From a virus (lineage: Duplodnaviria > Heunggongvirae > Uroviricota > Caudoviricetes), in IMG/VR virus record IMGVR_UViG_2778261534_000007, positions 1 through 40,456 of that record: a DNA stretch of 40,456 bases, one strand, 5' to 3'. The notes beneath the pieces were generated by a model. That model was given only the letters and a program-made list of their open reading frames with translations. It ran no database searches and was not told the DNA's origin. Of this stretch, positions 1,690 to 40,456 are shown one piece after another. The position numbers and the translations under genes were made by a program. Position 1 is the stretch's first letter, and each line of letters opens with the position of its first letter.

Positions 1690-1704
1690 TGGTGTCCCCT
1701 GCAG
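1690..1704 (-). other. Prophage attachment-site core (attR); 15-bp copy of the 3' end of tRNA-Arg (argW)
   Basis: TGGTGTCCCCTGCAG is the reverse complement of CTGCAGGGGACACCA, the 3' acceptor end of E. coli argW as I recall it. It lies 74 bp beyond the torI stop, where the phage-host junction is expected. Confidence 0.6.
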
Positions 1705-1777
1705 ACATCTACTTGAGGCGGCAGGGGATTGATTGGAATGGTGTTTTTTAGGTGTGAGAAATATTTTACCCGCTATT

Positions 1778-1978
1778 TTACCCATTGGCGCGGCTTAAGA
1801 GCTTATTTTTGAATTCACAATGGTCACGATATAACCATCTTGCTCGCCCGTGGATAACTTTGGCTTTTGGCAGGTCGCCGGACTTAATCCGGTCGTAGAT
1901 GAAGGTTTTACCAAAGCCAGTATCGGCCATGATGAATTTCAAATCAACCAGGGAATCAGGCTGTAGTTCGTGTTGCAT
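1778..1978 (-). CDS. torI: Excisionase / recombination directionality factor, TorI-like (66 aa)
   Basis: 66-aa winged-helix Xis-like protein (FGKTFIYDRIKSGDLPKAKVIHGRARWL); position adjacent to attR as in KplE1, where torI and intS sit at opposite prophage ends. Confidence 0.7.
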   Translation of the reverse strand: MQHELQPDSLVDLKFIMADTGFGKTFIYDRIKSGDLPKAKVIHGRARWLYRDHCEFKNKLLSRANG

Positions 1979-1997
1979 GAGTGCTATCTCCGAATAG

Positions 1998-2013
1998 GGA
2001 ATCGAACCTGCAA
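1998..2013 (-). other. 16-nt tRNA-Arg T-arm-derived segment upstream of torI
   Basis: Minus-strand TTGCAGGTTCGATTCC is an exact 16-nt match to the argW T-stem/loop as I recall it; chance occurrence in 40 kb is roughly 1e-5. Confidence 0.5.
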
Positions 2014-2023
2014 ATCAGGTAAT

Positions 2024-2044
2024 AAAAAACCGCCATCAGGCGGC
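2024..2044 (-). terminator. Putative intrinsic terminator downstream of the 99-aa Cys-rich gene
   Basis: Minus-strand hairpin CCGCC-TGAT-GGCGG followed by TTTTTTATT. Confidence 0.4.
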
Positions 2045-2086
2045 TTGGTGTTCTTTCAGTTCTTCAATTCGAATATTGGTTATGTC

Positions 2087-2386
2087 TTATTCGATGCGTA
2101 CTCCTGGTATTTCGCCTTTTGAAATGGCTAAGTCATAAATTTGCGCAGCACTATACCCATCTCGCATCCATGAATCTAAGGCGCGAATAGCCTCGCTACG
2201 CTTTTTATCTTCTCTTTCATTTTTGATATCAACGAGGACATCAACGCAATTAAGGCATATGTGGATTTTGTCCTTACATTCGATCATGGCGGCTTTACCA
2301 TGATTTCCGCCACACAGTGAGCATAAATCTTCAGGGTCTGGCTGGTATTTCTGTAACGTTAAAGGGTTGAATGTTGAACAGGCCAT
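2087..2386 (-). CDS. Hypothetical Cys-rich (zinc-finger-like) phage protein, ~99 aa
   Basis: ORF with GGAG RBS 6 nt upstream of the ATG at 2386; CSLCGG...CLNC motif pairs. Confidence 0.55.
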   Translation of the reverse strand: MACSTFNPLTLQKYQPDPEDLCSLCGGNHGKAAMIECKDKIHICLNCVDVLVDIKNEREDKKRSEAIRALDSWMRDGYSAAQIYDLAISKGEIPGVRIE

Positions 2387-2442
2387 AATCATCTCCATAA
2401 AACAAAACTCGCCGTAGCGAGTTCAGATAAAAGAAATCCGCA

Positions 2443-3243
2443 TTAAGCGGCGTCGGTGAATTCAAATAAAAAACCGGCTTGCGCCGGCTCTCTCATCTTT
2501 CTGTCTACCCATGCTGATATCGATGGTGGGTGCACCTTTTCAATAGCTGCGCGAAGTACAGCTGTACGTGCCAGTTTGTCGGTAATCTCAGGAAATCGCT
2601 TCTCTGTCTTCGGTACGTTAACAGCAACATTAGTAGAATCCGCACTGGCGAACGGATACATACCAAGAACTCTCACGTCGAGCATTCGAAGACCATGAAT
2701 TTTCACTTTCAAATTACGATTGATATAAAGCTCAGTGAAAACTTCATCCATTCTCTGTTCCCACCATTTAGAGCGTATGTGCCTGTGTGGGCCGCAGCAT
2801 CCAATCGCCACCCATTCAAATTTGCCAGAAAGGCGTAAAAGACGTTCAATTGATTCGTCGGTATGCCAGACCGGAACCGCTTTTGATTTTAGCCAATCAG
2901 GAACCAACTCAATCTGCTCGTCGTTTTCTGCCTCTGTCCCTTCGATAACGTCAGGTATAAGAAACCATTCAATTCTGCTGAACCACTTCCCAACAAAGTC
3001 GTAGAATTTTGCTCGTCTCTTACTCCAGTCTACCGGAGTGCCTTTCTTTAATGCTTTCATCCAGTCGCTAAAAGCGCCGTTATCAAGGCGTATATCACAA
3101 GGGAACATGGCAATCTTTTTCATCTGCTCTGGTCTGGCAAATGAAACAAAAGCCCCACCATCACGGTAAAGGGCTTTAATCAGCATATCTGTAGGGGCAT
3201 GCTCATCCCCCCATATTGGGCTGCCGTGAAAGTGGATGGTCAT
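2443..3243 (-). CDS. Hypothetical early-left accessory protein, 266 aa
   Basis: Long ORF in the early-left operon; family not recognised by inspection. Confidence 0.6.
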   Translation of the reverse strand: MTIHFHGSPIWGDEHAPTDMLIKALYRDGGAFVSFARPEQMKKIAMFPCDIRLDNGAFSDWMKALKKGTPVDWSKRRAKFYDFVGKWFSRIEWFLIPDVIEGTEAENDEQIELVPDWLKSKAVPVWHTDESIERLLRLSGKFEWVAIGCCGPHRHIRSKWWEQRMDEVFTELYINRNLKVKIHGLRMLDVRVLGMYPFASADSTNVAVNVPKTEKRFPEITDKLARTAVLRAAIEKVHPPSISAWVDRKMREPAQAGFLFEFTDAA

Positions 3244-3285
3244 ATTATCCCCATATAAAAGAAATCCCCGCGAGTGCGAGGATTG

Positions 3286-3570
3286 TTATTCAGTGCCGAT
3301 ATTTACCTTTATCGCGAACACCTTTACCGGTTTATCGCCGAAGTGGGGATGTGTGATTGTCTTGATTTCATATCCGTCATACGGAACATCAATTCTTCGG
3401 CTGGAATCGTCGCGCTTCGGATATCCCTTTGTGATAATCAGGCGGTCATACTCCCGGAACATAATTCGCTTATTCCAGTAGTCATTACACAGGCGATACT
3501 CTTCTGTTTTCTCTCCGCGAATCATGGCATCGAAGTATTCACCTTTGACGGCAAGTTGCAGGTTAGCCAC
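3286..3570 (-). CDS. Small phage protein, ASCH/DUF3850-like (94 aa)
   Basis: N-terminal pattern LAVKGEYFDAMIRGEKTEEYR resembles the ASCH/DUF3850 signature (pattern-level inference). Confidence 0.5.
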   Translation of the reverse strand: MANLQLAVKGEYFDAMIRGEKTEEYRLCNDYWNKRIMFREYDRLIITKGYPKRDDSSRRIDVPYDGYEIKTITHPHFGDKPVKVFAIKVNIGTE

Positions 3571-4096
3571 GGTTAACCTCCTGCGGCGGTTCTGGTAGCG
3601 GCATCCAGTGAGTTATTTCATCGGCAAAGATATCTGAGTTAAGTTCCGTCCAACTATTCCAATACCCAGATTCATCCCACCATTTAACCTCGACATGCTC
3701 TCCGTCGGTCACTAACACATCAGCATACCCTTTCGGCATTCGCTCACTACAGCTTATCCAACCATCCGGAGTTACCGGAGAGTTGCCATTTACATCGAAG
3801 TTTGGCTCTGCGTCCTGAACCAGGAGGATGTAACCATTCTTGGCTGTATCAAGTTCTAACGCCTCGGTGACGGTGCCGAAATAGCGATTACCTAAATCAG
3901 CATCACAAGTGCTTACATCAATGGAAACTTCCATGCCTTCGATTAATTCTGGCAAGTTGTAAGTTTGGCTTACAGGCTCTGCTTCCAGCGATGCCAGCGC
4001 AATCCGTGCCAGTTCCATTTGTTCGCCACGAGTAAGTCCGTTATCAAGCGGATTTTTAATGAATAATTTGATACGTTCTTTGGTTATAGCGCTCAT
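3563..4096 (-). CDS. Phage protein with C-terminal DUF551-like domain (177 aa)
   Basis: C-terminal W-rich segment (VKWWDESGYWNSWTEL...HWMPLPEPP) typical of DUF551 in lambdoid early regions; 4-nt overlap with the upstream gene. Confidence 0.6.
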   Translation of the reverse strand: MSAITKERIKLFIKNPLDNGLTRGEQMELARIALASLEAEPVSQTYNLPELIEGMEVSIDVSTCDADLGNRYFGTVTEALELDTAKNGYILLVQDAEPNFDVNGNSPVTPDGWISCSERMPKGYADVLVTDGEHVEVKWWDESGYWNSWTELNSDIFADEITHWMPLPEPPQEVNRG

Positions 4097-4097
4097 A

Positions 4098-4592
4098 TCA
4101 CTCTCCTTTGGTGCGAATGCCAGTGGTACTCATTCTCCTGATTTCCCAGAGCACACGAGGAATACCACCGTTTCCGACCGGATCGCGTTTACTCCGCAGG
4201 GCGACGCTTGATTCCGCCCAGCTTTTTCTTGGAGGAAGCTCTTTCACACGAACAAAACCAGCTGCGCGAAGAGATGCTCCTGATTCATCTGCCTGGGTGT
4301 ACGTAATACAACGTTGATAACCCATAGCTTTTGCTGCCCGCCAGACAGCACCATAAAGCGCGCTGTTAGCGTTGCGTTCTCCTGTGGTACATGTGCGATT
4401 TACTTCAAGCGTTAATCCATCGTCCAAATGTCGTGCAACAGGTCGACCAGCTGTCGCCACACCTATCAATTCTCCGGCATTATTTCTCAGACCAATGCTG
4501 AATTTATGCCCCACTGGTGGTTTATTGTGTCGGTGGTGCTGTGCGATAAATTCCTGCGCCGCTTTCAGCGTTATAGGTGAAATGACCATCAC
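4098..4592 (-). CDS. Hypothetical early-left accessory protein, 164 aa
   Basis: ORF translationally coupled to neighbours; family not recognised by inspection. Confidence 0.55.
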   Translation of the reverse strand: MMVISPITLKAAQEFIAQHHRHNKPPVGHKFSIGLRNNAGELIGVATAGRPVARHLDDGLTLEVNRTCTTGERNANSALYGAVWRAAKAMGYQRCITYTQADESGASLRAAGFVRVKELPPRKSWAESSVALRSKRDPVGNGGIPRVLWEIRRMSTTGIRTKGE

Positions 4593-5194
4593 TCAGACTC
4601 CTCCTTGATGCCAGCGGCGCGCTCGGCTTCACTTTGTTCCCAAAACCACTTGTGAAGCGCCATAAGCTTTTCGTCAATCGGTGCATATTTGCGATTAAAG
4701 TAGGCCTGAGCATCTTTCTCAGATTCGTCCGGTAATTCGCCAGGGCCAAACAGTGTGTTATAAATCCATGCCAGTCCGCTCTTAGCGTCGCCAGTTGCCT
4801 GCCATTCGATAATGGCAGCCTGCATGACCAGAATGTTTTTCCCGATTAATAGGTCCAGTTCTTTGTACCGGTTGCGGATGTATGCATTCTCGCTTTGTAA
4901 TTCAGCGTTTCGCTTCTCTGCTGCTTCCAGCTCATCCAGCAGCGCCAAGACGGTAGCCGGATTGGCTGCGGCGATGAATTCAGCATTGGCCTGCTGTTCC
5001 ATTTGGAAATCTTCATCGAAACCGCTTTCAGGATGCGCTCCTTCAATTCTGCAAATGGGAATATATCCAGCAACTTCACGATGAATTAGCGCATCATCAC
5101 CATCAAATCGGCCCTCTCCATATTCGAGCGACCACACACCACACGTTGCTTTTTCTGCCTTGGCACGCAGTACCTGATAGTCAATCTTGCTCAC
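4589..5194 (-). CDS. Ead/Ea22-like coiled-coil phage protein
   Basis: Central heptad/coiled-coil segment ([30 protein letters not shown]); likely GTG start at 5194 preceded by AAGGAGG. Confidence 0.55.
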
Positions 5195-5358
5195 TGGTTG
5201 CCTCCTTTGCGCCACATCGCATTCAGATATTTGTTTTGATTCACTGATGGAAAAGAATTTCTCTTAAGCAATTCCTCTCTCGATGGCATTGGCTTTACGC
5301 GTTGGCGAATAATCATTTCTGCCGGAAGAATGCCTGGATTGTATGCAAGTCCTCTCAT
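5191..5358 (-). CDS. Small hypothetical protein (55 aa), below the ORF-track size cutoff
   Basis: ATG at 5358 preceded by AAAGAGGAA RBS; stop overlaps the start of the next gene. Confidence 0.3.
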
Positions 5359-5374
5359 GGTAAATTCCTCTTTG

Positions 5375-5689
5375 TTAATTTATTCGTATGCCTGCTCTTT
5401 CTTCATCGAGTTTTTTTAGCTTGTATCGCATAGCTCTTACTGAATAAATTGAGCGGCAGGTTGCAATTGCTATTTCTTCTGCGGAGAACTTACCGAAAAG
5501 TGATACTTCGGCTCTTGTCCAGCGTCTTCCACGAAGTCGGCTAACAATGTCAGCGCCAATCCTTGTTGCTTTCGCCATTACTGCTTTTTCAGTCCTTTCC
5601 AGTTTTTCAGCGATAACTTCAACTGGCATTGTCGCCGCCACTTCGCGCAAGAAATCGACTTCCCATTTCTCCCATGGAGTCTTTTTCAT
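5375..5689 (-). CDS. Hypothetical phage protein, 104 aa
   Basis: ORF in operon context downstream of the RecT module. Confidence 0.5.
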
Positions 5690-5700
5690 AGGCGATACCG

Positions 5701-6189
5701 TTATTTGATAAGAAGTGAAGGTTTCCCAACTTTGAGTTGAGCACCGGGGATATTTATTCCTGCTTTTAGTTGGTGTTTGATTGCCAGTTTGTCGGCTTTA
5801 ATTGTCGTTTCAAACTCAACGTATTCAGGAGGAAGGGCGCTTGAGTCGATGATTTCTACAGTTTCTGACGGTTTGCGGATTGTTACCTGGTGAATACCTG
5901 CTCTAATCTTTTTCTTGCCAACCATTTCAAGCGATGAGGCTATATATGCCATAATGCTATCAATCTTATTTTGAATTACTGCTGCTCGTTCATTCAGTGA
6001 CTTTGCCTCGTCCTTGAGGCGTTCAGCATAACCAGATTCATTTTTAATAATGGCAAGAAGTTGCTCTATTTTATCGGTAAATTCTCCTTCCATGCCTTCT
6101 ATTGTGTCAGCAATCATCTCTGGTTCTAAATCTGAATCCATCAATTTTGCGTATTCATTGGCAATTTCATATAGTTTGCTCACTGGCAA
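5701..6189 (-). CDS. Recombination-associated protein, siphovirus Gp157-like (162 aa)
   Basis: Immediately downstream of and overlapping recT; acidic helical N-terminus; Gp157-family assignment is by resemblance and synteny. Confidence 0.5.
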   Translation of the reverse strand: MPVSKLYEIANEYAKLMDSDLEPEMIADTIEGMEGEFTDKIEQLLAIIKNESGYAERLKDEAKSLNERAAVIQNKIDSIMAYIASSLEMVGKKKIRAGIHQVTIRKPSETVEIIDSSALPPEYVEFETTIKADKLAIKHQLKAGINIPGAQLKVGKPSLLIK

Positions 6190-7069
6190 CCTCCAGTTTC
6201 GCTTTGCATTCTATGTAAATGGCTTGTATGTTCTGCTGCAATTTCATTCCAGATGTCAGGCGATATGCTTCTGCAAAATATCTCTTCAAATCATCCATGT
6301 TTTCAGACTGAGCCATTTCATCACAAAGAAGTTGTGCTTTATCCGTTATTTCCTGCTGGCGTTTCCGTTCATCTTCGCGGATATCTTCCTCTGATTTGTG
6401 CGGCATAACTGGTTCCTGATGCATACCTTCATCTTCGTTAAGCAGGTGAATGGCATTATCCAGTCGCTGGGCTTTAGGCCAGTATTTGCTGGCGCGTTTA
6501 ACTATTGTTTTACGCGCCATCTCTTCCCAGAATGTCTTCCACGGTCCATTCTTTGCCTTGCTCGTTGCTTCCACAGCTTTAATTTCTGCCAGACTCATTT
6601 CTTCAGTGAGGTAGTCACCATCTGCTGTTTTAACCGTACAATAACCACCAACAATAGAGCCTCGCTCACCAAATGCGTTGTATTTGTGGGTTGGTGCTGA
6701 ATCAAGGCCGTTTGATTCATAGGTGTCGTTTGAGTACACCAGTTTGCATTGCCCCCACTTAATTGATCCTGTCGATTGCGCAAGATGAAGTAATCCCATG
6801 TAACTGATATCAAGGCAAACCATGCCGTCGCGAGGAACCAGATAAGCCAGTTTGCTGGCCGGGTTTAAGGTGATGCCGATCGCCGCAACATTGATGATGG
6901 CGTTCTGTGCGCTGGTTGGATTTGCCAGTGCCGTTTTAGCCAGGTAATCATTTTTCTGGAAATACTGAATTGCAAACTGGCTTTCCTTAGCCCATGTCAC
7001 CGTCTGTTCAGTCAATGCTCCGCAGAATAACTGCTCCTGCTGTTTAACGAATTCAACGATATTGCTCAT
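6167..7069 (-). CDS. recT: RecT-family single-strand annealing recombinase (300 aa)
   Basis: RecT-family similarity across the length (NVAAIGITLNPASKLAYLVPRDG...); located in the position of lambda bet. Confidence 0.8.
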   Translation of the reverse strand: MSNIVEFVKQQEQLFCGALTEQTVTWAKESQFAIQYFQKNDYLAKTALANPTSAQNAIINVAAIGITLNPASKLAYLVPRDGMVCLDISYMGLLHLAQSTGSIKWGQCKLVYSNDTYESNGLDSAPTHKYNAFGERGSIVGGYCTVKTADGDYLTEEMSLAEIKAVEATSKAKNGPWKTFWEEMARKTIVKRASKYWPKAQRLDNAIHLLNEDEGMHQEPVMPHKSEEDIREDERKRQQEITDKAQLLCDEMAQSENMDDLKRYFAEAYRLTSGMKLQQNIQAIYIECKAKLEVASEQTI

Positions 7070-7377
7070 GCAGCTTCTCCAAAAATGTGTCTGCGTTTAA
7101 ATATTGCGAAGGCATATTCAGCCTTAACTCTTTCGGTTATTGCATCCCAGAACCATTCAGCGGCTTTTTCCTGATAGTTACAGTCATCATCTTCCAGCCA
7201 GTCGATAGCGTCCTTAGTGTGTTCATCTGGTTTATATGAGCGAAGCATTTCGCTTATTGGGTCGCAACGTTTGCAGAGGCGATCAACTTCACTGTTAATT
7301 CGTTCGTAATCTTCATCAGTAAAACTTGCGATTATTTGCGATATTTCACGCTTATCATTCAGAGTCAGAATCATCAT
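7066..7377 (-). CDS. Hypothetical acidic phage protein upstream of recT (103 aa)
   Basis: ORF overlapping the recT start by 4 nt; acidic, Trp-rich; no family recognised. Confidence 0.5.
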   Translation of the reverse strand: MMILTLNDKREISQIIASFTDEDYERINSEVDRLCKRCDPISEMLRSYKPDEHTKDAIDWLEDDDCNYQEKAAEWFWDAITERVKAEYAFAIFKRRHIFGEAA

Positions 7378-7458
7378 CTTTCTCCTGTTCTTTGTGCTGA
7401 TTGAGCATTTTGTTCATCTGACGAATGAATTCTTCGTCTGACCAGTTATCTGTAAAAC

Positions 7459-7581
7459 TCATTTCCTGCGATACCACGGAAGGTTGATAGCTGATTTCAT
7501 CGCTTTATTTGCTTCAAGCCACATTTTTGAATCACCAATAAATCTGGCTATTACTGCTTTGTTTTGTGCCGCACGAAGCAT
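7459..7581 (-). CDS. Kil-like small protein (40 aa), below the ORF-track cutoff
   Basis: ATG 14 nt after the cIII stop; translation MLRAAQNKAVIARFIGDSKMW... resembles my recollection of lambda Kil (IATFIGDEKM). Confidence 0.4.
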   Translation of the reverse strand: MLRAAQNKAVIARFIGDSKMWLEANKAMKSAINLPWYRRK

Positions 7582-7595
7582 CTGGTGATTAATGG

Positions 7596-7730
7596 CTATT
7601 TCATTGCGCATAACGCCTCCAGTTGTTTCTTTGCTGCTCTAATTAATTGTTTAACTCGGCGTGATAATTCAGATTCGTGCGGGTAGAAAGCGGACATGAC
7701 GCCGCTACCCGCGAGCTGAAAGTGCATCAT
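7596..7730 (-). CDS. cIII: cIII-like protease inhibitor (44 aa)
   Basis: MMHFQLAGSGVMSAFYPHESELSRRVKQLIRAAKKQLEAL resembles lambdoid cIII; AAGGAG RBS before the ATG at 7730. The longer listed ORF (to 7835) runs through a terminator hairpin and is rejected. Confidence 0.7.
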   Translation of the reverse strand: MMHFQLAGSGVMSAFYPHESELSRRVKQLIRAAKKQLEALCAMK

Positions 7731-7793
7731 GGGTAACTCCTTATATTTGATTGCATAACGAAAACGCCTCGAGTGAAGCGTTATTGGTATGCA

Positions 7794-7820
7794 TATAAAA
7801 AGGCCCTCACACTGGAGGGC
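7794..7820 (-). terminator. Intrinsic terminator (tL1-like) between the 156-aa gene and cIII
   Basis: Minus-strand hairpin GCCCTC-CAGTGT-GAGGGC followed by CTTTTTAT. Confidence 0.5.
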
Positions 7821-7924
7821 AAAGAAGATTTTCAATAATCAGAACAAGTCGGCTCCTGTTTAGTTACGAGCGACATTGCTCCGTGTATTCACTCGTTGGA
7901 ATGAATACACAGTGCTTATTTGTA

Positions 7925-8395
7925 CTAATAAAATACCCAATTTTCTGTTTCTTGGTTGTGTCCAAAGTTATATTCAATATCTGGTGTTGATGTATCAATA
8001 TTCTTCATCCCATCAACAAGAGTTGATACAACAGCCAAATCTTGTTTGATTCTCATTAAATGGTATTTCTTCCGGCGCAATAAACTTTCAATGGCAAGTT
8101 TCTTCGTTGGGAATGCAAAAGATCTTTCTGCATTTTTTGCTACTTTCTTAATTGCATATCTATTTCTCTTTTGTTTCCATTCCTGTAACCACTGATTTGG
8201 TGCTGGTTTAAAATTAACAATCCAATGCGCAGGAACCAACCATGCATAATGCTCTGTCTGATGAAAAGCTATATATTGAAGTGCGAATATTTTGATTCCA
8301 TCTTCTTCAACTGTCGCCTGGAATCTCCAGAAAACAGGCATTCCATCATGTTCAGTTTCTGATTCAGGAAAAGGTACGCTCCATGATTTTGTCAT
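7925..8395 (-). CDS. Hypothetical AT-rich accessory protein (156 aa) in the N-cIII (sieB/ral) slot
   Basis: ORF with markedly lower GC than the flanking N and cIII genes; followed by a 9-bp-stem inverted repeat (7883..7910); no family recognised. Confidence 0.6.
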   Translation of the reverse strand: MTKSWSVPFPESETEHDGMPVFWRFQATVEEDGIKIFALQYIAFHQTEHYAWLVPAHWIVNFKPAPNQWLQEWKQKRNRYAIKKVAKNAERSFAFPTKKLAIESLLRRKKYHLMRIKQDLAVVSTLVDGMKNIDTSTPDIEYNFGHNQETENWVFY

Positions 8396-8403
8396 ATCTC
8401 ACC

Positions 8404-8730
8404 TCAAATAAGTGGCTTGCTGCCTAATTTCATTTTCTGGCGACCAACACAAGTCACACCCATTTCACTGCGTGGCTTGCTGTACCATGTGCGCTGATTC
8501 TTGCGCTCAATACGTTGCAGGTTGCTTTCAATCTGTTCGTGGTATTCAGCCAGCACCGTAAGGTCTATCGGATTCAGTGCGCTTTCTACTCGTGATTTCG
8601 GTTTGCGATTCAGCGAGAGAATTGGGCGGTTAACTGGTTTTGCGCTTACCCCAACCAACAGGGGATTTGCTGCTTTCCATTGAGCCTGTTTAGCTGCGCG
8701 GCGTTCGCGGCGGCGTGTTTGTGCATCCAT
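8404..8730 (-). CDS. N: Antitermination protein N (lambda-type)
   Basis: Near-identity to lambda N as recalled (MDAQTRRRERRA.KQAQWKAANPLLVGVSAKPVNRPILSLNRKPKSRVESALNPIDLTVLAEYH...). Confidence 0.9.
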   Translation of the reverse strand: MDAQTRRRERRAAKQAQWKAANPLLVGVSAKPVNRPILSLNRKPKSRVESALNPIDLTVLAEYHEQIESNLQRIERKNQRTWYSKPRSEMGVTCVGRQKMKLGSKPLI

Positions 8731-8998
8731 CTGGATTCTCCTGTCAGTTAGCTTTGGTGGTGTGGTGGCTGGTAGTCTAGCTCCAGCTTGTTGAGTCTCA
8801 TTCGGAGGGGTATAACCGGCACCCCAGCGATTTTTCCATGCGACAACGTGCGCGTTATGGCGGCCTTATCGCCCGCGGCTCCCCATCTCGTCCACGCTAT
8901 TGCTAGCGTTGGGAGCGCTTCACCGCTCAACAGTAGGTAAGCACTTGCCAGTGACTAGCTGGCTTCACCACACACCAAAGCCTTCTGCTTTGAATGCT

Positions 8999-9029
8999 GC
9001 CCTTCTTCAGGGCTTAATTTTTAAGAGCG
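8999..9029 (-). promoter_or_regulatory. nutL (boxA CGCTCTTAA + boxB GCCCTGAAGAAGGGC)
   Basis: Reverse complement reads CGCTCTTAAAAATTAAGCCCTGAAGAAGGGC, the lambda nutL sequence; boxB at 8999..9013, boxA at 9021..9029. Confidence 0.8.
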
Positions 9030-9068
9030 TCACCTTCATGGTGGTTAGTGCGTCCTGCTGATGGCTAA

Positions 9069-9097
9069 ATAGTACGATTTGTACTTTATCGAGTCAA
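9069..9097 (-). promoter_or_regulatory. PL-like early leftward promoter (-35 TTGACT, 17-bp spacer, -10 TACTAT) with flanking operator-like TTTGTA/TACAAA repeats
   Basis: Sigma70 consensus-like hexamers with 17-bp spacing upstream of nutL on the minus strand. Confidence 0.55.
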
Positions 9098-9160
9098 TAC
9101 AAAATGTTCTAAATATAATTAGTTTTTTATAACGTTTTGTATTTAATGGGTTTATAATTT

Positions 9161-9190
9161 GGAAAAAGAAAACCCGACGCTAAGGTCGGG
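9161..9190 (-). terminator. Intrinsic terminator downstream of cI
   Basis: Minus-strand hairpin CCCGAC-CTTAGC-GTCGGG followed by TTTTCTTTTTCC. Confidence 0.55.
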
Positions 9191-9222
9191 TTATTGTTGT
9201 GTGTTTTAGAGTGGTGAGGCTG

Positions 9223-9882
9223 TTAACTAAATGTCTCTTCAGGCCACTGGCTGGCGATAACTTTCCCTACTACGGAACAGCTATCATTGCATGGAATCAT
9301 TGGATATTGCGGGTTTAGTGGCTGTAGGAACACCTGACCGCTATCCCTGATCAGTTTCTTGAAGGTAAACTCGTCACCACCAAGTCTGGCTATGCAGAAA
9401 TCACCTGGCTCAACAGCCTGCTCGGGGTCAACGAGAATTAACATCCCGTCAGGAAAGCTTGGCTTCGATCCTGTTGGCGCGGTCATGGAATTACCTTCAA
9501 CTTCAAGCCAAAACGCACAATCACTGGCTTTTTTGGTTGTGCTTACCCATCTCTCCGCATCACCTTTGGTAAAGGTTCTAAGCTCAGGCGAGAACATCCC
9601 GGCCTGAACATGAGAAAAAACAGGGTACTCATATTGTTTTTTAACGGGGGCAGATGAGTATTCGCCAACAGGTGAAAATGTACCGTCGTGGTTGAATGAG
9701 ACGTTATCAATACCAAGGTATTTAAACACCACACCAATCTCGTCAAGAGATGGATGACGAGATCCGCGCAACCAGTGACCAATTCCACCCTGCGTCATAC
9801 CAAGCTCTTCAGCTAACTTCTCTTGAGTTATGCCGAGCTCTTTCATTCTGGATCTAGCCAGTTCATACCATTTCATTTTCAT
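9223..9882 (-). CDS. cI: CI-type prophage repressor (HTH N-domain plus LexA/S24-like autocleavage C-domain)
   Basis: C-terminal ~150 aa match lambda cI as recalled ([22 protein letters not shown]...[48 protein letters not shown]...); N-terminal HTH ([23 protein letters not shown]) differs from lambda. Start at 9882 or 9876; the listed ORF start (9924) is a TTG extension. Confidence 0.85.
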
Positions 9883-9938
9883 ACCCTTATTATTACGCTC
9901 TGTACTAAAACCATCCATGCACAAGATGTATTTTTTGT

Positions 9939-9967
9939 TTGCATTCTAAAAGTACATATCGTATTAT
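9939..9967 (+). promoter_or_regulatory. PR-like promoter (-35 TTGCAT, 17 bp, -10 TATTAT) within the cI-cro operator region
   Basis: Consensus-like hexamers 27 nt upstream of the cro ATG; GTAC-containing operator-like repeats nearby. Confidence 0.5.
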
Positions 9968-9993
9968 TGTTTCATGGTTACTATGGAGGGCAT

Positions 9994-10209: not shown

Positions 10210-10217
10210 GACATTCC

Positions 10218-10249: not shown

Positions 10250-10325
10250 ATTACCAGAAACAAATCTCTATGGTTTTGCGTTTCTTTGCGAAGCCAACTC
10301 TATCTAATCATTAAGGAAATTATCT

Positions 10326-32755: not shown

Positions 32756-34752
32756 TGGCTAAAGCATGGAAAGATGTTATCGCCTCTCCACAGTATCAGG
32801 CGTTAGCACCAGAACAAAAAGCGCAGGCTCAGGAGCAATACTTCAATGAAGTCGTGGCCCCGCAAGCCGGAGAAAATGCAGAGCAGGCTAAGCAAGCTTT
32901 CTATGCTGCCTATCCATTGCCATCTGTGCAGCCAGTGGAGACACAACAACCATTAGCACAGCAACAACCACAGCAAAGTGGATTTATGTCTGATCTTGGC
33001 GAAGCAGTAAGAGAGACTGGTCGCGGACTGGTGCAGGCTGGCGTGAACGTGGCAAACATACCTGCATCAGTTGCCGATGCTGTAACAAGTGCGGCGGCTT
33101 GGGCTGGCGGTAAACTCGGCATTGGTGATGGTACATATCAACCAGCGCCACGAGTAACAACGCAGGGATTAGAGCAGGACTTTGGCCTTCAGCAAGGCGC
33201 GCTGACTCCACAAACTACAGAGGGCAGGGTATTTGCTGAGGCATTGCCTTACCTCACTCCTTCTGGCGTTGAGAGAGCGGCGGTACAGGCACCAACACTT
33301 GCTGGTCGAATTGCTCAGGGGGCAACTCGCCTTCTCGCAGAAAACGCAGTTGGATCACTTGCTGCAAACAGTATGAAAGATGATGCGGAAGCACTTGCTA
33401 CCGATTTAGGCGTTGGTGTGCTGGCTGGCGGTGCTATTAACGCTGCCGGACGTGGGTTAGGTGCTGCTTATCGTGGCGTTCGTGGTGCTATTGCGCCAGA
33501 AGCGCAGCAGGCTATCAGATTTGCAGAGCGTGAAGGAGTTCCTCTGCACACCACAGACCTGTTACAGCCTACTTCCCGCGTCGGGAAAATGGCGCAGACG
33601 ACAGCGGAAAATATCCCCCTGGCTGGCACAAGCGGGATGAGAGCAACGCAACAGGAAGCGAGAAGCCAGTTGGTGCAGAGATTTGCTGATAAATTCGGTG
33701 AGTATGATCCAGCTGTTGTTATTGACAGCCTTAAAGCGAAAACATCAGGAATTCGTCGTGCTGCAGGGAACCGTCTTGAGCAGGTTCAGAATGCAATGGC
33801 GGGAGTCAATATCCAGCCTGCTCGAGCAATTCAGCAGATTGATACAGAAATATCTAACCTGCAGAAGCTTGGTAAGGTCGCCGATAACGAGACTATTTCA
33901 AAACTTCAGTCCTATCGTGATGAGCTTGTTCGCAATGCTGGTCCTGATGGTCCGGTAAATCTGGATTTGAAGCAATTAAGCGATCTGCGCAGCCAGTTCA
34001 GAATGGACGTGAAGGGTGAGCGACCAGTGTTACCAAACCGTTCCGATGCCGCCATTCAGCGCGTTTACAAGGCGATGACAGACGATATCAATGGTGCCAT
34101 TGGTCAGAATCTTGGCAACGATACTCTCCGTAAATATCAGCAGGCCAATGCCGTCTACGCTGACGAAGCGGCGAAACTAAAGAATACCAGGCTGAAGAAT
34201 GTTCTCATGAAAGGCGACCTGACGCCGGAAGTTGTCAACAACATGCTATTCAGCAAGAACAAATCTGAAATTAAGACGCTGTATAACTCAGTTGGTCGTG
34301 TTGGCAGGGCGCAAATGCGCAATGGCATCATTGGAAAGGCGATGGAGAAATCTGGCGGATCCCCTGACCAGTTCCTTCGACAGCTTAACATCCTGCAAAA
34401 CCAGACTGGCATCACATTTAAGGGGCAGGACGCTGCTTATCTGAAAGGATTGAAAAACTACCTGCAATCCACGCAGCAGGCTGCAAAAGCGGCAATAACA
34501 ACACCAACAGGGCAGCAAACCATCCCGTTCATTATCGGATATGGGACAGCAATGAACCCGGCGACAACTGGCGCAGCAGTAAGCTACGGACTTCTTACTC
34601 GCGCATATGAGAGCGAGCCATTCAGAAATGCAATGCTCCGAATGGCAAACACCCCACGCGGATCAACAGCCTTTGAGAAAGCAATGCAGCAGGCACAAAA
34701 GGCAATTAACGCTCTGACGCAGGGGGCTAAGTCTGATGCGTTGTCAGAATAG
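32755..34752 (+). CDS. Ejection protein, P22 gp16-position
   Basis: Synteny and size (665 aa); last gene of the rightward late operon before the convergent lipoprotein gene. Confidence 0.55.
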   Translation: MAKAWKDVIASPQYQALAPEQKAQAQEQYFNEVVAPQAGENAEQAKQAFYAAYPLPSVQPVETQQPLAQQQPQQSGFMSDLGEAVRETGRGLVQAGVNVANIPASVADAVTSAAAWAGGKLGIGDGTYQPAPRVTTQGLEQDFGLQQGALTPQTTEGRVFAEALPYLTPSGVERAAVQAPTLAGRIAQGATRLLAENAVGSLAANSMKDDAEALATDLGVGVLAGGAINAAGRGLGAAYRGVRGAIAPEAQQAIRFAEREGVPLHTTDLLQPTSRVGKMAQTTAENIPLAGTSGMRATQQEARSQLVQRFADKFGEYDPAVVIDSLKAKTSGIRRAAGNRLEQVQNAMAGVNIQPARAIQQIDTEISNLQKLGKVADNETISKLQSYRDELVRNAGPDGPVNLDLKQLSDLRSQFRMDVKGERPVLPNRSDAAIQRVYKAMTDDINGAIGQNLGNDTLRKYQQANAVYADEAAKLKNTRLKNVLMKGDLTPEVVNNMLFSKNKSEIKTLYNSVGRVGRAQMRNGIIGKAMEKSGGSPDQFLRQLNILQNQTGITFKGQDAAYLKGLKNYLQSTQQAAKAAITTPTGQQTIPFIIGYGTAMNPATTGAAVSYGLLTRAYESEPFRNAMLRMANTPRGSTAFEKAMQQAQKAINALTQGAKSDALSE

Positions 34753-34842: not shown

Positions 34843-35328
34843 TTATCTTATGTTACTGCTACTGTTGCATGTGACTGTATTTCCAAACCCTGAATTGCAG
34901 TTTGTGTAAGTGTCAACGCGTGTTGGATAGGGTTGAGTTATAACAGGCTGTCTCGCTTTTTGCTCGATCGCTTGCATTGTGTTTACAGCCTGATAATTCA
35001 ATAAAGCCTGCTGGAATGCTTGGCTTTGTGCTATTTGTTGGGCTTGTTCTTGGCTTTGTAATTGAACATAAAGATTCTGAAGCTCAAGTCTTGCCTGTGC
35101 GTCACTTATCTTGCCTTCATCGACACCTTGCCCGAGCATCTTTGCAGCAAGGACATACAGCTTAGGTGTTGGTGCTGATGCCATGCGTGAGTCGTTCTTC
35201 ACACTGGCATCAAGGCAATTAGCCATATCGCTAAGCTTTTGATAGCGTTGTTCGCAACTTGCTTGATAGTCACTTACTTTTGCGCATCCAACCAGCAGAA
35301 GCGGGATAATTAACAGTAATTTTTTCAT
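34843..35328 (-). CDS. Phage-encoded lipoprotein (161 aa) in the immI/sieA slot
   Basis: AAGGAGAG RBS; signal peptide with lipobox MKKLLLIIPLLLVGC; Gln-rich helical region; Cys-containing C-terminus; the listed ORF start (35364) is an extension. Confidence 0.7.
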   Translation of the reverse strand: MKKLLLIIPLLLVGCAKVSDYQASCEQRYQKLSDMANCLDASVKNDSRMASAPTPKLYVLAAKMLGQGVDEGKISDAQARLELQNLYVQLQSQEQAQQIAQSQAFQQALLNYQAVNTMQAIEQKARQPVITQPYPTRVDTYTNCNSGFGNTVTCNSSSNIR

Positions 35329-35398
35329 ATGGTTAACTCTCCTTAGTTTTTCACAGGATAGCATGAAGGCAATGCCATTTTAGCCGGAAACTAGATTT

Positions 35399-35698
35399 CT
35401 ATGTTTCCTTTTTATTATTGCTATACATGGTCTTAAGCGTTTCAAAAACCATTTTCTTAACCATATCAGATTGTTGTTCTGCCATACGCTCTGCATCGTC
35501 AATGTAAACGGATGCAGAGCTTTGTTTAGCCAACGATTCTTCAATCGCTGCAATTATCTCTGAGTTCAGCGATCTGTTATTCATCTTCGCACGCTGCTTA
35601 ATTTTCGCGTGGAGTTCATGCGGAAGTCTCAAGTGAAACTGCGCCTCATCGTATTTGCTGTACATCCTTGATGCCTCACCAGTTGGGTGGAATGGCAT
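35399..35698 (-). CDS. mnt: Mnt-like ribbon-helix-helix repressor
   Basis: RHH N-terminus (FHLRLPHELHAKIKQRAKMNNRSLNSEI); C-terminus DAERMAEQQSDMVKKMVFETLKTMY resembles P22 Mnt as recalled; start may be at 35665 (MYSKYD). Confidence 0.7.
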   Translation of the reverse strand: MPFHPTGEASRMYSKYDEAQFHLRLPHELHAKIKQRAKMNNRSLNSEIIAAIEESLAKQSSASVYIDDAERMAEQQSDMVKKMVFETLKTMYSNNKKET

Positions 35699-35786
35699 CG
35701 TAACCTACTGGATAAATACTCAATAGTACCATTTCGGTATGCAATCACATCATGGTTGCATCATATCATTCGTCTGGAGCAATGAA

Positions 35787-38024
35787 ATGTCAGATATCAC
35801 CGCAAATGTTGTGGTAAGCATGCCTTCGCAACTCTTCACTATGGCGCGTTCTTTTAAAGCGGTTGCCAATGGCAAAATTTATATCGGAAAAATTGACACT
35901 GACCCGGTAAATCCTGAAAACCAGATTCAGGTTTATGTAGAGAATGAAGACGGTTCTCACGTTCCTGTTTCGCAACCAATCATCATTAACGCTGCTGGAT
36001 ATCCGGTATATAACGGACAGATTGCCAAATTCGTTACCGTGCAAGGCCATTCGATGGCTGTTTATGATGCGTATGGTGCGCAGCAGTTCTATTTTCCGAA
36101 TGTTCTTAAATATGATCCTGATCAGCTTAAAGTATCTCTATCAGGGAAAGACGGTCTTAAATACATCGGGACATGCCCTGATATAGCAATGTTAAGGACA
36201 ATTGAGCCTGAGCGAGATCAGCAAAAGATTTTCGTCGACTTCCACACTACAGGCATGAAGCCTACAGTATCAGGTGATACTGGTGGTGGTCTGTTTGTGT
36301 CAGATTTCACAGATTCTACTTCTGCAGATGATAACGGCATGGTCATTGTCACTGCGGGTGGTAAACGCTGGAAACGTGATCTTCAAGGTAAGGGGTATGT
36401 AACACCACGTATGTTTGGTGCGTGGATGGATGCTCCATATATTGACTGGAATACTATTCAGGCCACAGGGTATCCTAGAGCGCCAAGCATGGGTGGCGTC
36501 GATTTAACAGGAGTAACAAATGATGGATTAGCACTTAATAAAGCTTATCTAACTAAGCTTCCTGTTTTCATAGACCAGCCCATATATATGGGTAACACTC
36601 AAATTGACATTAGCCAGTTTAGATGGGAAGGGATTAGTCTAAATCTATATGGGATTAATCCACAAAAAAGTATTGTTTATACATCAGGAAGTGGTGGTTT
36701 TGTTATGGGAAGTTGGGGGCACAATCTTAAAGTAAAGAATATGTGTTTTCGCAACGCTGACGATGAATATTCAGGTAGCCCATTGGTCATTTCTGGTCAA
36801 ACACAAACTTTTGGCGGTGGTAGTGAATATGATATTAAAAATAACATATTTCTACATTATAAATTTGCACTTCCCTTATCATGCTTTGTCAGTAATGTTA
36901 CAAACAACCAAGCATATGATTGTATCTATGGTTTCGGTTTGGCTGGCACATCTACTACATTCTCTTCCAACTGGGCAAGGCATTGTGACTACGGATATCT
37001 GTGGGGCGCGGCTATTGATAGAACAACATATGATCCGGTGAACAGTCCTTACCCATTGATGTATGTTAAGGCCACAAATATCGCGTCGGATGGATGTAAA
37101 TTACCACATAAGTTCTATCAATTTAGATCTTTAAGTATTGATGGTCTAGGTATTGAGGGTGTCACAGGAGATCATTGCTTAGATTTTACAGATATAGTTC
37201 AGCAGGATGCTACTTCGCTAATGGAGTTGTCAAATATCTCATGCAATCTTAAGGAAGACAATTCGGTAGGTGTGACGCACTTCATATCATTGCCAACTAA
37301 TGAACAGAATGGACCAACACAAGTTAGGATATTATCTGGATATGTTCGGGCATACAAAGGGATTACCATTCTTAAGAATACATCTGACGAGTCAAGCCAG
37401 TATCAATGCCGTGGGTTTGATATTTGTGATGGGTTCAAATTCATAAAGCAAACAAGCGGTAGTTCTATCGCTGATGACTACGTTAGAGGGAGTAAATATC
37501 ATTCAAGATTCTATGGTGAACATACAGGTATTGGTTATCAGACAGGCTCTAATGGCACTAAACTTTCAGCATTACATCAGGCATCAAATGCAGTATATCC
37601 ACAAGTTATTACAGAGAACGGTACAATACTCATGCCTTATGGGAGGGCTCTCGATATTCTTATAGCAACAGATGGAGAGGAATCGTATTATACTGGTGGT
37701 GTTTTTATTGCCGGTGAGATAAGTATAATTCCTATTAACCAAAATGGATTGGGAGGGGTTAACGAAAATGGAGGGGTTATTTTATTTAGCGTTTCAGCTA
37801 AAGATCAAGCAACGTTATTATCATCAAAAGTTTGGGTAAATAAAATTACAGGAGACAAGCTATTAAATAATGTAGTGGTTTCCAAGTACAACAATGGAAG
37901 CCAAACAATACTAAGGATAAACTTCGCAACAGCAACCATCTCTCAAGCCATATTGCATATTACACTAACCTCACAAGGTCGGATGCATTACTATGATAAG
38001 AGATGGAAAATTGTAACTCCGTGA
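35787..38024 (+). CDS. Tailspike protein: P22-type N-terminal head-binding domain plus divergent beta-helix receptor-binding domain
   Basis: Residues 1-~115 match the P22 gp9 N-domain as recalled ([11 protein letters not shown]...F...[35 protein letters not shown]...VLKYDPDQ); the remainder diverges and is AT-rich; GGAG RBS. Confidence 0.85.
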
Positions 38025-38031
38025 TCACCAC

Positions 38032-38051
38032 CCCCCCATGTAAAATGGGGG
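38032..38051 (+). terminator. Hairpin terminator between the convergent tailspike and acyltransferase genes
   Basis: Hairpin CCCCCA-TGTAAAA-TGGGGG followed by an AT-rich run. Confidence 0.45.
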
Positions 38052-38055
38052 ATAT

Positions 38056-39054
38056 TTATATTAAATGTTTTGTTATTTTATTCTTTGATAGTAAATAACA
38101 AATTAAAGCTGAAATTGCGAAATATATTATGGTGAGTACAGGTATCATATACCATGCATTAACAGGACTGTAGCCAAACTTTATCTCTCTGACTAATATA
38201 AAATGTATGAAATAGATACCAAAAGATAGTCCTGAAATTGTCCTTATAAAGGAAAGCACATGATCAGATACACGATCCTTAACTGAAATGCAAAACATGA
38301 ACGTGAAGATAGCACTTGCAAAAACAAATGGAGCAGTATTTTTAAAGAAAAGCTGTTCCGGCCTACCAACCTTGCTGGACCACCATATTGTAGCTAAAAC
38401 AGTAGCCACGCTAAAGAAGACAACAAGCAGGAAATAAATTATCCAACTAATAGTTGAAATTCTGTCTCTATATCTTCTTAGTATAGCGCCAACAAGAATG
38501 TATATGCCATTCTCTGAAATAAAATCCAACTTAAGCCATGTAAGGCTAAACATTGTTCTGTGAATGTACGGAACGAGTGAGTGAACGTAAAACAACATCG
38601 CTATTATCATCAGTATATAATACGATGGCAAATTCTTAAGTGGATTACTTATTATTGGTAAAAACATATACATGCAAATATATGTATACATAAACCATAA
38701 ATGGACCTCTGAATGTTGAAATAATGACGATATTTTAAGTCCGTTATAGTGATTATTATATAAAAAATAAAACAGCCACCAAAACATAAAAGGAATAAAG
38801 AGTTTTCTAACCCCTTTTGCTAAATGATTTGAAGCCTCTATCTCCTTTTTATAATAAAGGTATCCTGTTATTATAAAGAATAACCCAATACATTGTCGTG
38901 TAAATGAACTATACGTTGTTATAGTATTCCATGAGTCGCTGAATGCAAGGAAGTAAGCTCCTGACGCATGTAACATAACCACAAGAAAGATAGCTAAACT
39001 TCTTGCTATATGCACTTCATTTAACTCTATTCTATTTTGTCGAATATCAGACAT
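38056..39054 (-). CDS. Integral-membrane acyltransferase (acyltransferase-3 family; O-antigen acetylase Oac-like), 332 aa
   Basis: About 10 predicted TM helices; N-terminal motif RSLAIFLVVMLHA typical of the acyltransferase-3 family; very AT-rich; located between tailspike and integrase, where seroconversion genes sit in P22-like phages. Confidence 0.75.
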   Translation of the reverse strand: MSDIRQNRIELNEVHIARSLAIFLVVMLHASGAYFLAFSDSWNTITTYSSFTRQCIGLFFIITGYLYYKKEIEASNHLAKGVRKLFIPFMFWWLFYFLYNNHYNGLKISSLFQHSEVHLWFMYTYICMYMFLPIISNPLKNLPSYYILMIIAMLFYVHSLVPYIHRTMFSLTWLKLDFISENGIYILVGAILRRYRDRISTISWIIYFLLVVFFSVATVLATIWWSSKVGRPEQLFFKNTAPFVFASAIFTFMFCISVKDRVSDHVLSFIRTISGLSFGIYFIHFILVREIKFGYSPVNAWYMIPVLTIIYFAISALICYLLSKNKITKHLI

Positions 39055-39298
39055 TACGCACCCACCACAATTTTATTTGTATGATTTATATGCTTTTAAA
39101 TTTAAGATTATTTTGTCCTTTTTCTATCACGTAACCATGAGCGAGATGATACTTAAAAAAACAGTGCTGCGAATTTATTCTATCATCCAAGGCTCCATCG
39201 ATCGATACTTGCGGTAGTTGATGAGGAAAAGCTATGGTACACAAAGCTTTGCACTGGATTGCAAGGTTTTGTTTCTATCAGATAGTGGTTAAGCTGGA

Positions 39299-40456
39299 TC
39301 ACTCCACCTTTTCATCAATCCAGTCCGCCCACCACTGCATCATTTCTCTGCGCTTATCGAGATACTGAGCATGGTTGTAAATCCCGCGCACAGAACCGCC
39401 GTTGGCATGTGCCAGTTGCACTTCAATAGCATCAGCAGGCCATTCGTGCTCGTTCATAATCGTGCTGAATTCATGCCTGAATCCGTGACCGCTTTCCAGA
39501 CCCTCATAGCCGATTTGTTTGATCACAAGCAGTACCGCGTTCTCGCAGATTGGCTTCTTCTTATCGTTGCGACCGGCAAAAACAAACTCTGATACTGGTT
39601 TGGTGATTGAGCTTAGCGTAGTGAGAAGTTCAACCACCTGGTCTGACATAGGAACCACATGAATTTTGCGTCCCTTCATCACACTGGCGTCGATGGTGAT
39701 AATCCTGTTTTCAAAATCGACGTTCTTCCATAGCATAGAACGAAGCTCTTTTGTTCTGAGGGCTGTGTAGCGTAAAACTTTGGTCGCAATGAGCGATACG
39801 ATGCTTCCTGAAAATGTTGCCAGTGCTTTGTTAAATGCCGGGATCTGGTCTGCAGGAAGAAACGGGAAGTTTTTCTTGCGGTATCCCTTCATGGCGTCAG
39901 CAAGGTCAGGTGCCGGGTTATATTTAGCCCTACCAGTGACAATAGCGTAACGGAAAACCTCGCCGCATCTTCTGCGTGCTTTGTTGGCTCGCTCCATTGC
40001 CCCGCGATCTTCAAATCTGCGGATTACTTCCAGCAGTTGCATCGGCTCAATATCCTGAATTTCAAGGCCGCCGATGATAGGTAAAATGTCGTCATCAAAC
40101 ATTTTTGCAAGTTCAGTCGCATAGGCGGCTGACCAGACTTGCTTCTTGTGCTCGTACCATTCCTTGTAAATCGCACTAAAGGAATTGTTGTTAGACGAAG
40201 CCTTTTTCGCCTTTACCGGATCGATGCCAACCGAGATGTCTTTCCTCGCAGTCCATGCCTTATCCCTTGCCTCCTGCAAAGTCATAAGCGGATATTTTCC
40301 GACGGTCAGGATTTTCTCCTTACCGTCAATCTTGTAGCGAAGCTGCCATACCTTTTTCCCTGATACAGGAACATAAAGGTACAGGCCATTACCATCGAGA
40401 AGGCGGTATGGTTTTTCTTTCGGCTTTGCTGCCTCAATCTGCTTAACGGTGAGCAT
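39299..40456 (-). CDS. intS: Tyrosine site-specific integrase (P4/IntS family), 385 aa
   Basis: SAM-like and catalytic domains (R...HGFRHEFSTIM...Y region); start codon is the last base of the window, so the promoter and attL/argW lie outside. Confidence 0.9.
   Translation of the reverse strand: MLTVKQIEAAKPKEKPYRLLDGNGLYLYVPVSGKKVWQLRYKIDGKEKILTVGKYPLMTLQEARDKAWTARKDISVGIDPVKAKKASSNNNSFSAIYKEWYEHKKQVWSAAYATELAKMFDDDILPIIGGLEIQDIEPMQLLEVIRRFEDRGAMERANKARRRCGEVFRYAIVTGRAKYNPAPDLADAMKGYRKKNFPFLPADQIPAFNKALATFSGSIVSLIATKVLRYTALRTKELRSMLWKNVDFENRIITIDASVMKGRKIHVVPMSDQVVELLTTLSSITKPVSEFVFAGRNDKKKPICENAVLLVIKQIGYEGLESGHGFRHEFSTIMNEHEWPADAIEVQLAHANGGSVRGIYNHAQYLDKRREMMQWWADWIDEKVE

Follow-up and report, generated by a model that had tools for sequence, protein, structure and literature searches.

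The stretch of DNA analyzed here, called the window below, comprises the 40,456 nucleotides (nt) of IMG/VR virus record IMGVR_UViG_2778261534_000007 (Caudoviricetes). It is made up of three parts, namely a host gene (1-1248), a host spacer (1249-1689), and phage DNA, which starts at 1690 and continues to the end. The phage DNA opens with an attachment-site core next to the excisionase gene torI and ends with the integrase gene intS. We conclude, with a probability of about 0.9, that positions 1690-40456 represent nearly all of a ~38.9-kilobase (kb) temperate P22-like podovirus, a Lederbergvirus of the Sf6/HK620/CUS-3/IME10 group, integrated at argW. The host chromosome is Escherichia coli-like. 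The flank and the two ends of the prophage contain the following features.

1-1248, plus strand: C-terminal 415 codons of the host gene cscB, or oligosaccharide transporter of the major facilitator superfamily (MFS); chromosome flank outside the prophage
1249-1689: host spacer from cscB to the attachment site; directly abuts argW in unoccupied chromosomes
1690-1704: attR core TGGTGTCCCCTGCAG, a 15-nt duplicate of the argW 3' end, recognized by sequence identity
1705-1777: P arm of attR, from the core to torI, within a 339-nt block 97.9% identical to the K-12 attR-torI region
1778-1978, minus strand: torI, recombination directionality factor (RDF, excisionase; phrog_66, excisionase)
39299-40456, minus strand: intS, P4-type tyrosine integrase, annotated IntS in E. 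coli genomes

The left border of the prophage

The cscB segment was 98-99% identical to E. coli chromosomes in which the gene is annotated as cscB or as an oligosaccharide MFS transporter. The sequence TGGTGTCCCCTGCAG found at 1690-1704 is that of the argW 3' end of E. coli strain 573 and K-12, and it is the same as the attP core annotated in Sf6 and in HK620. The published core of KplE1, the defective K-12 prophage, has 16 nt, CTGCAGGGGACACCAT (PMC2951348), and the attR copy agrees with it at 15 of the 16. In csc-positive chromosomes a G, not a T, follows the CCA end of argW, and it is because of this difference in the local attB flank that the identity at the attachment site extends over 15 rather than 16 nt. 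BLAST alignments to K-12 KplE1 (97.9% identity), Sf6 (97.2%), and HK620 (98.0%) all started exactly at 1690.

Further evidence for this border came from the empty site, which was looked for by scanning IMG/VR with the 3' half of argW. In three contigs, the sequence immediately after argW was GATACCCTTCAAACG..., corresponding to the window read from 1689 downward on the opposite strand. Two of them, L130 and L190, matched window 1-1704 in reverse complement over its full length of 1704 nt with 98.7% identity, the unoccupied site spanning 6110-7828 in L130 and 6523-8241 (reverse) in L190. As argW is joined directly to the 1-1689 flank in these contigs, the site is unoccupied there, and 1690 is the true left border of the prophage. 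This is also where a sequence-only reading of the window had started the element, the core, the onset of identity, and the empty-site contigs all agreeing. The junction between cscB, attR, and torI was present, over at least 80% of window 1-2500, in 368 genomes.

The gene torI begins 74 nt inside attR. Its product is identical to K-12 TorI, Sf6 gp18, and HK620 HkaC (66/66 amino acids, aa). In KplE1, IntS arm-type sites and TorI binding sites overlap the att regions (PMC2951348); the P arm at 1705-1777 would, judging from its sequence, hold such sites as well.

The integrase end

At the opposite end, the last gene is intS, so that the placement of torI beside attR and of the integrase at the far end, as the sequence-only reading had it, was borne out, with proteins identical or nearly identical to those of K-12. 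IntS (385 aa) shares 382/385 residues (99.2%) with K-12 IntS and 378-382/385 with the integrases of Sf6, HK620, and E. coli 573; its arm-binding, central, and catalytic domains were recognized as Arm-DNA-bind_3, Phage_int_M, and Phage_integrase. The intS region was matched in 2508 of 5426 complete E. coli genomes.

The ATG of intS forms the last three bases of the window, ending at 40456. The end of argW lies 162 nt upstream of the intS start in both E. coli 573 and K-12. IMG/VR held 547 contigs encoding an IntS relative, the best 80 of which were 98-99% identical, many of them being 38-44 kb long. Among these best 80, the 38 loci in which a 99%-identical intS was preceded by 200 nt or more were used to locate argW, and in 36 of the 38 a distance of 161 nt separated the intS ATG from the end of the argW core. 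By analogy with these loci, a second copy of the core, CTGCAGGGGACACCA, is expected in the tRNA-Arg(CCU) gene argW, ~161 nt past the intS ATG. The attL junction predicted in this way would also include the intS promoter (PintS), which in KplE1 overlaps attL and is autoregulated by IntS and TorI (PMC2951348). The length of the whole prophage was estimated at ~38.9 kb, with ~176 nt beyond the window; Sf6 has 39.0 kb, HK620 38.3 kb, and IME10 39.6 kb.

In 42 of the best 80 IMG/VR IntS loci, less than 200 nt was present upstream of intS, and many of these sequences began at the integrase ATG. The end of the window at the same codon suggests a border set at a gene edge by a prophage caller, which would systematically remove attL, PintS, and argW.

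Genes of the early regions

About 59 open reading frames (ORFs) fill the interval between the two ends. None is interrupted, and their profile matches are close to full length. The scans with PHROG and Pfam found no insertion sequence (IS) element or transposase, and no deletion scars were found. ARAGORN detected no tRNA in the window, and the Rfam scan at gathering thresholds gave 0 matches, hence no known phage small RNA family or tRNA-like element. The claim of a full immunity, replication, nin, lysis, and P22-like virion gene set was confirmed, all of these genes being intact ORFs. The lambdoid early functions N, cI/cro/cII, O/P-type replication, nin, Q, and S-R-Rz were all present. The early-left operon and the immunity region contain the following genes.

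2087-8730, minus strand: early-left (pL) operon, orf103 to N (PHROG, Pfam, and NCBIfam matches)
2443-3243, minus strand: DpdA-like gene, 266 aa (PHROG 887, 'queuine tRNA-ribosyltransferase', E = 1.4e-102)
early-left operon, minus strand, listed between the DpdA-like and XF1762/Mom-like genes: DUF551 gene
4098-4592, minus strand: XF1762-family/Mom-like gene, 164 aa, early-left operon
early-left operon, minus strand, listed after the XF1762/Mom-like gene: ead/Ea22-like gene
5701-6189, minus strand: Gp157/Mu-Gam-like gene
6167-7069, minus strand: RecT
7459-7611, minus strand: kil
minus strand, listed between kil and N: cIII and orf156
8404-8730, minus strand: N
8969-10607: immunity region (nutL with pL/OL, cI, OR, cro, cII)
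9223-9882, minus strand: cI (phrog_4)
9994-10209, plus strand: cro (PHROG match)
10326-10607, plus strand: cII (PHROG match)
10642-11286, plus strand: gene with a T5orf172/MUG113 domain, 214 aa, between cII and O (Pfam PF13455, PF10544)

N and nutL were 92% and 98% identical to lambda at the nucleotide level. The cI protein is a hybrid. Its C-terminal oligomerization and autocleavage domain is nearly identical to that of lambda cI (3 differences over the stretch from YEYPVF to the C-terminus), and the residues needed for autocleavage (Ala111-Gly112, Ser149, and Lys192) are kept, while its N-terminal DNA-binding domain is unrelated in sequence to that of lambda. Such a combination predicts a lambda-like cleavage during the SOS response together with a different immunity specificity. 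Related 20-nt operator-like sequences flank cI (9068-9087 and 9949-9968), and no rexAB genes are present beside it.

Two genes of the early-left operon, the DpdA-like (2443-3243) and the XF1762/Mom-like gene (4098-4592), are candidate DNA-modification morons, as far as their sequence indicates. The name of the first comes from PHROG, no match being obtained in PDB, Pfam, NCBIfam, or PADLOC, and no genes for preQ0 synthesis were found in the prophage. The T5orf172-domain gene may similarly be a candidate prophage defense moron. The N-terminal domain of its product matched PADLOC PDC-S57 and PD-Lambda-1, at the level of the domain only.

The replication, nin, and lysis genes follow on the plus strand.

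11240-12963, plus strand: replication genes, O-like initiator and DnaC-like helicase loader (phrog_678, phrog_50)
12960-17225, plus strand: nin region (ren-like, ninB, ninE, ninX-like, ninF, ninG, ninH, ninI, Q; PHROG matches)
16602-17225, plus strand: Q, late-gene antiterminator
17782-19029, plus strand: lysis cassette, S holin, R endolysin, and Rz with embedded Rz1 (PHROGs 126, 90, 13, 3198)
19214-19897, plus strand: gene for a Rha-like regulator or antirepressor, in the interval between lysis and packaging genes (phrog_518; Pfam Phage_pRha)

The O gene contains origin iterons at 11624-11718 (4 repeats of ~18-24 bp, containing TGTCTC...GAGACA). As the sequence-only reading had stated, the nin-Q and lysis segments are nearly identical to lambda. 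Positions 15013-17325, from ninF to just past Q, were 98.1% identical to lambda 42297-44609, and Q itself was 100% identical to lambda Q at the protein level. Over 17441-18809 (S, R, and the start of Rz) the identity was 95.1%. The match to lambda ends inside Rz, where the Sf6 record annotates a 'boundary sequence', and the identity to HK620 runs past this break, up to 19377.

Genes of the late region

20442-22339, plus strand: terminase small (145 aa) and large (486 aa) subunits (phrog_309, phrog_2)
22339-26727, plus strand: portal, scaffolding protein, and coat of the P22 gp1, gp8, and gp5 types (PHROGs 156, 648, 283)
26771-27358, plus strand: WDGH-domain gene, 195 aa (Pfam PF25311, E = 1.3e-39; phrog_3769)
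27276-34752, plus strand: tail hub and ejection genes gp4, gp10, gp26 needle, gp14, gp7, gp20, and gp16 (PHROGs 637, 578, 1030/1219, 651, 598, 917, 770)
34843-35698, minus strand: immI-like remnant, orf173 (173 aa, no assigned function) and a Mnt/Arc-type repressor (99 aa) (phrog_6067, phrog_795)
35787-38024, plus strand: tailspike (phrog_33504)
38056-39054, minus strand: Acyl_transf_3 membrane acyltransferase (Pfam PF01757, E = 6.5e-35)

The virion genes characteristic of a Lederbergvirus (terS-terL-portal-scaffold-coat-gp4-10-26-14-7-20-16-tailspike) were found as collinear intact ORFs. The genes terS and terL gave no match in Pfam or NCBIfam and were identified through PHROGs and through homologues named terminase. 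The portal-coat segment was 97.7% identical to IME10 and 74% identical to P22 at the nucleotide level, and the full-length portal, scaffold, and coat proteins were 98-99% identical to those of IME10 and 73-85% to those of P22. From gp10 to gp16, the nucleotide identity to Sf6 was 91-96%, and the gp26 tail needle carries the Sf6-type knob (Pfam Phage_tail_NK).

The WDGH-domain gene follows the terminator of the coat gene, in the place taken by orf69 in P22 and by gene 6 in Sf6. It overlaps the gp4 ORF at its 3' end, and no counterpart was found in Sf6, HK620, IME10, or P22. In the immI-like region, the repressor matched Pfam Arc and Repressor_Mnt, and no ant antirepressor gene was found.

The head-binding N-terminus of the tailspike is conserved, as in other Lederbergvirus members. 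Residues 1-116 matched the N-terminal domains of Sf6 gp14 (E = 2.5e-64) and P22 gp9 (2.2e-51) in PDB. The receptor-binding part is divergent, and the PDB comparison gave no close solved structure for it. The acyltransferase gene occupies the position of Sf6 oac, in the interval between tailspike and int, in a region with a guanine-plus-cytosine content of 32.7%. Its product showed a weak match to O-acetyltransferase phrog_3333 and a weak similarity to Sf6 Oac, and it is likely to be an O-antigen acetylase for serotype conversion. The block formed by tailspike, acyltransferase, and intS (35432-40456) was 97.3% identical to E. coli strain 573, a chicken isolate from China, which was the sole complete genome covering it fully.

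Relationship to known phages and to KplE1

We compared the predicted proteins with those of Sf6, IME10, HK620, P22, and lambda. The comparison with HK620, Sf6, and K-12 KplE1, which had been proposed as a check, showed that the element belongs with Sf6 and HK620 and that its resemblance to KplE1 is confined to the recombination module.

IME10 was the closest overall among isolated phages. Besides the portal-coat segment (97.7% nucleotide identity), it shares gp4 and gp10 (92%), nin-Q (97.5%), and intS (96%); it differs in terminase, early-left operon, immunity, replication, and the tailspike/acyltransferase region, and it covers ~60% of the late half of the window.

With Sf6 (Casjens et al. 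2004, cited in PMC2951348), the prophage shares the attP core, TorI (100%), IntS (98%), an O-antigen acyltransferase gene in the gap between tailspike and int, lambda-like S and R, and Sf6-type gp10, needle knob, gp14, gp7, gp20, and gp16. In contrast, Sf6 has its own head genes, so that portal, scaffold, and coat showed 27-33% aa identity or no match here, and its terminase, immunity, tailspike receptor domain, and acyltransferase are also different. Its replication genes include a DnaB-like helicase, instead of the DnaC-like loader found here, and it recombines with Erf rather than RecT. Sf6 also carries IS911 and tRNA genes, both of which are lacking in the present element.

HK620 (Clark et al. 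2001) has the same recombination module and argW target, a Q that is 99% identical, and S, R, Rz, and Rz1 proteins that are 90-100% identical; the spacer between lysis and terminase genes and ninB are also common to both. It differs in head genes, immunity, replication genes, tailspike, and conversion gene, an O-antigen polymerase-like gene standing where the acyltransferase is found here. The likeness to CUS-3 was in the N-terminal 120 codons of terS.

Lambda provides close relatives of ninF-Q, S-R, N, nutL, and the C-terminal domain of cI, but its virion genes are not present, its O, P, and immunity specificity are different, and its attP-int-xis order puts both int and xis at one prophage end. 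P22 shares the collinear virion module (gp3, 2, 1, 8, 5, 4, 10, 26, 14, 7, 20, 16, 9, at 35-93% aa identity) and the Mnt-type repressor. Unlike the present element, it is organized as attP-int-xis at thrW, int and xis being neighbors, and it carries gtrABC and a full immI with ant.

The structural region is itself a mosaic, with a terminase of a third type, a head of the IME10/P22 type, tail and ejection genes of the Sf6 type, and a tailspike and acyltransferase shared with strain 573. The sequence-only reading had emphasized one sharp boundary between lambda-like and P22/Sf6-like parts. The contrast between them is real, but there is no single boundary, as the element shows many module junctions, which is typical of lambdoid phages.

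With KplE1 (also called CPS-53) the element has in common the argW site and core, an identical TorI, an IntS that is 99.2% identical, and the location of intS and torI at opposite ends. The match is limited to window positions 1690-2028 and 39171-40456, or 1,625 bp in all. KplE1 is otherwise a 10.2-kb remnant with an unrelated interior that contains no repressor, replication, lysis, or virion genes. The designation 'KplE1/CPS-53-type' therefore holds for the recombination module; it does not hold for kinship of the whole element, with its 1,625 bp of shared sequence, which is better described as a Lederbergvirus of the Sf6/HK620/IME10 type.

Proposed life cycle and its weak points

If the prophage is functional, its life cycle may be pictured as follows. 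The free phage would have the order tailspike, O-antigen acyltransferase, intS, attP, torI, and pL operon. Recombination by IntS between attP and the 3' end of argW would bring intS, together with its own promoter, to the argW side at attL, and torI, as the final gene of the pL operon, would come to lie beside attR. In the lysogen, cI would keep pL and pR off, and the acyltransferase would probably modify the O-antigen that the tailspike recognizes. SOS-triggered cleavage of cI would allow N-antiterminated transcription from pL to reach torI. The genome would be excised by TorI together with IntS and replicated from the iterons inside O by the O protein and the DnaC-like loader, and the lambda-identical Q would turn on the lambda-like lysis genes, P22-type headful packaging, and the virion genes.

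Several points weigh against our conclusion. The attL site, the intS promoter, and argW all lie beyond the window end at 40456, and integration into argW on the attL side is predicted from relatives alone. Intact ORFs are no proof of function, as missense mutations and defects of promoters, operators, or the pac site are invisible to inspection. No identical prophage or phage was found in the complete E. coli genomes or in the phage collection that were searched; the best coverage by an E. coli genome was 58% of 1-25000 and 79% of 17000-40456, at 96-97% identity. Finally, terS is chimeric. Its first 360 nt, encoding the N-terminal 120 codons, were 98% identical to CUS-3 terS, and its last ~25 codons and the whole of terL have no close relative among the isolated phages of the collection, the best match (75% nucleotide identity) being to Pseudomonas phage Ab31. 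The position of the junction in terS fits a TerS C-terminus that co-varies with TerL.

These observations could be accommodated by a cryptic prophage, non-inducible like KplE1, that carries hidden missense or regulatory defects or an incompatible mosaic of terminase, portal, and pac site. Decay is indeed common among prophages (PMC3509656), the element has no identical counterpart among isolated phages or the other complete genomes, and a chimeric terS is joined to a terL type lacking among the isolated coliphages of the collection. We nevertheless regard such a state as unlikely, in view of the ~59 uninterrupted ORFs, with lengths as in functional homologues, the size typical of the group, the lack of IS elements or deletion scars, and the intact cleavage residues of cI. 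The terminase argues in the same direction. TerL homologues of the same length and named terminase were 99% identical in E. coli (250 member sequences) and 90% in Salmonella, indicating that this type of terL is conserved.

That the window contains the full-length form of KplE1/CPS-53, the K-12 element being its decayed descendant related along the whole length, is very improbable in spite of the shared integration site, the identical TorI, and the 99% identical IntS, because only 1,625 bp are shared with the 10-kb K-12 element, which largely refutes whole-length kinship, the gtr-type yfdGHI, tfaS, and yfdK of the K-12 interior have no counterpart here, tail-fiber assembly genes (tfaS, yfdK) are foreign to a P22-type virion, and sharing of the recombination module alone is what the literature already states (PMC3509656).

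A temperate Lederbergvirus at argW represents one more mosaic combination in the large and well-studied family of P22-like argW prophages, with a layout that has already been published. It is a candidate inducible, possibly generalized-transducing, and serotype-converting phage of its host strain, and its DpdA-like, XF1762/Mom-like, T5orf172-domain, and WDGH-domain genes are accessory genes of relevance to restriction evasion or defense. If active, this repressor-bearing relative could complement the work on KplE1 concerning the coupling of IntS/TorI excision to induction, a purpose for which HK620 and Sf6 already serve.

Arrangement of the recombination module

The element has an IntS-type integrase and a TorI-type RDF encoded at opposite ends, as in the module of KplE1, HK620, and Sf6. 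In the free Sf6 and HK620 genomes, the annotated order is conversion gene, int, attP core, xis (TorI), and pL operon, while the lambda and P22 records show attP-int-xis instead. Int and xis come to lie at opposite prophage ends because the recombination site attP is between them. This int-attP-RDF module is conserved in KplE1, HK620, Sf6, CUS-3, and many argW prophages, and the transcription of int and that of the RDF gene are uncoupled in it (PMC2951348, PMC3509656). The split had been described in the sequence-only reading as unusual and reminiscent of KplE1. The split itself is there, but it is not peculiar; it is the published, normal layout of complete, viable phages such as Sf6 and HK620 (PMC2951348, PMC3509656) and is not special to KplE1.

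Close to torI, we also observed that 16 nt of the argW T-arm, TTGCAGGTTCGATTCC, recur exactly at 1998-2013 on the minus strand, 19 nt upstream of the torI ATG. This was the single exact match to the 16-mer in the window, and none is expected by chance. The 16-mer directly adjoins the att core in argW itself. Its copy in the phage keeps its order and orientation with respect to the core (1690-1704), at a distance of ~293 bp, and these ~293 bp hold only torI and the P arm.

It is doubtful that the copy is a footprint of the origin of the int-attP-xis arrangement or a functional mimic of the attB side. In the first case, an ancestral attP that included at least 31 nt of argW may have received an RDF cassette by insertion or by recombination beside it; in the second, an integrase-binding sequence of the attB side may have been recruited into the control region of torI and pI. 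An ancestral attP with contiguous T-arm and core was sought in IMG/VR, but no example was found, as 120/120 matches carried the full 5' part of argW and were host tRNA genes. The torI contexts among the fetched loci (n = 7) were all 100% identical, so that no diverged ones were sampled. The T-arm copy is common to Sf6, HK620, and K-12 KplE1, and it is thus a feature of the family, not of this window. It lies inside the pI promoter and cII site annotated in HK620, where positions 1664-1702 correspond to 1985-2023 of the window.

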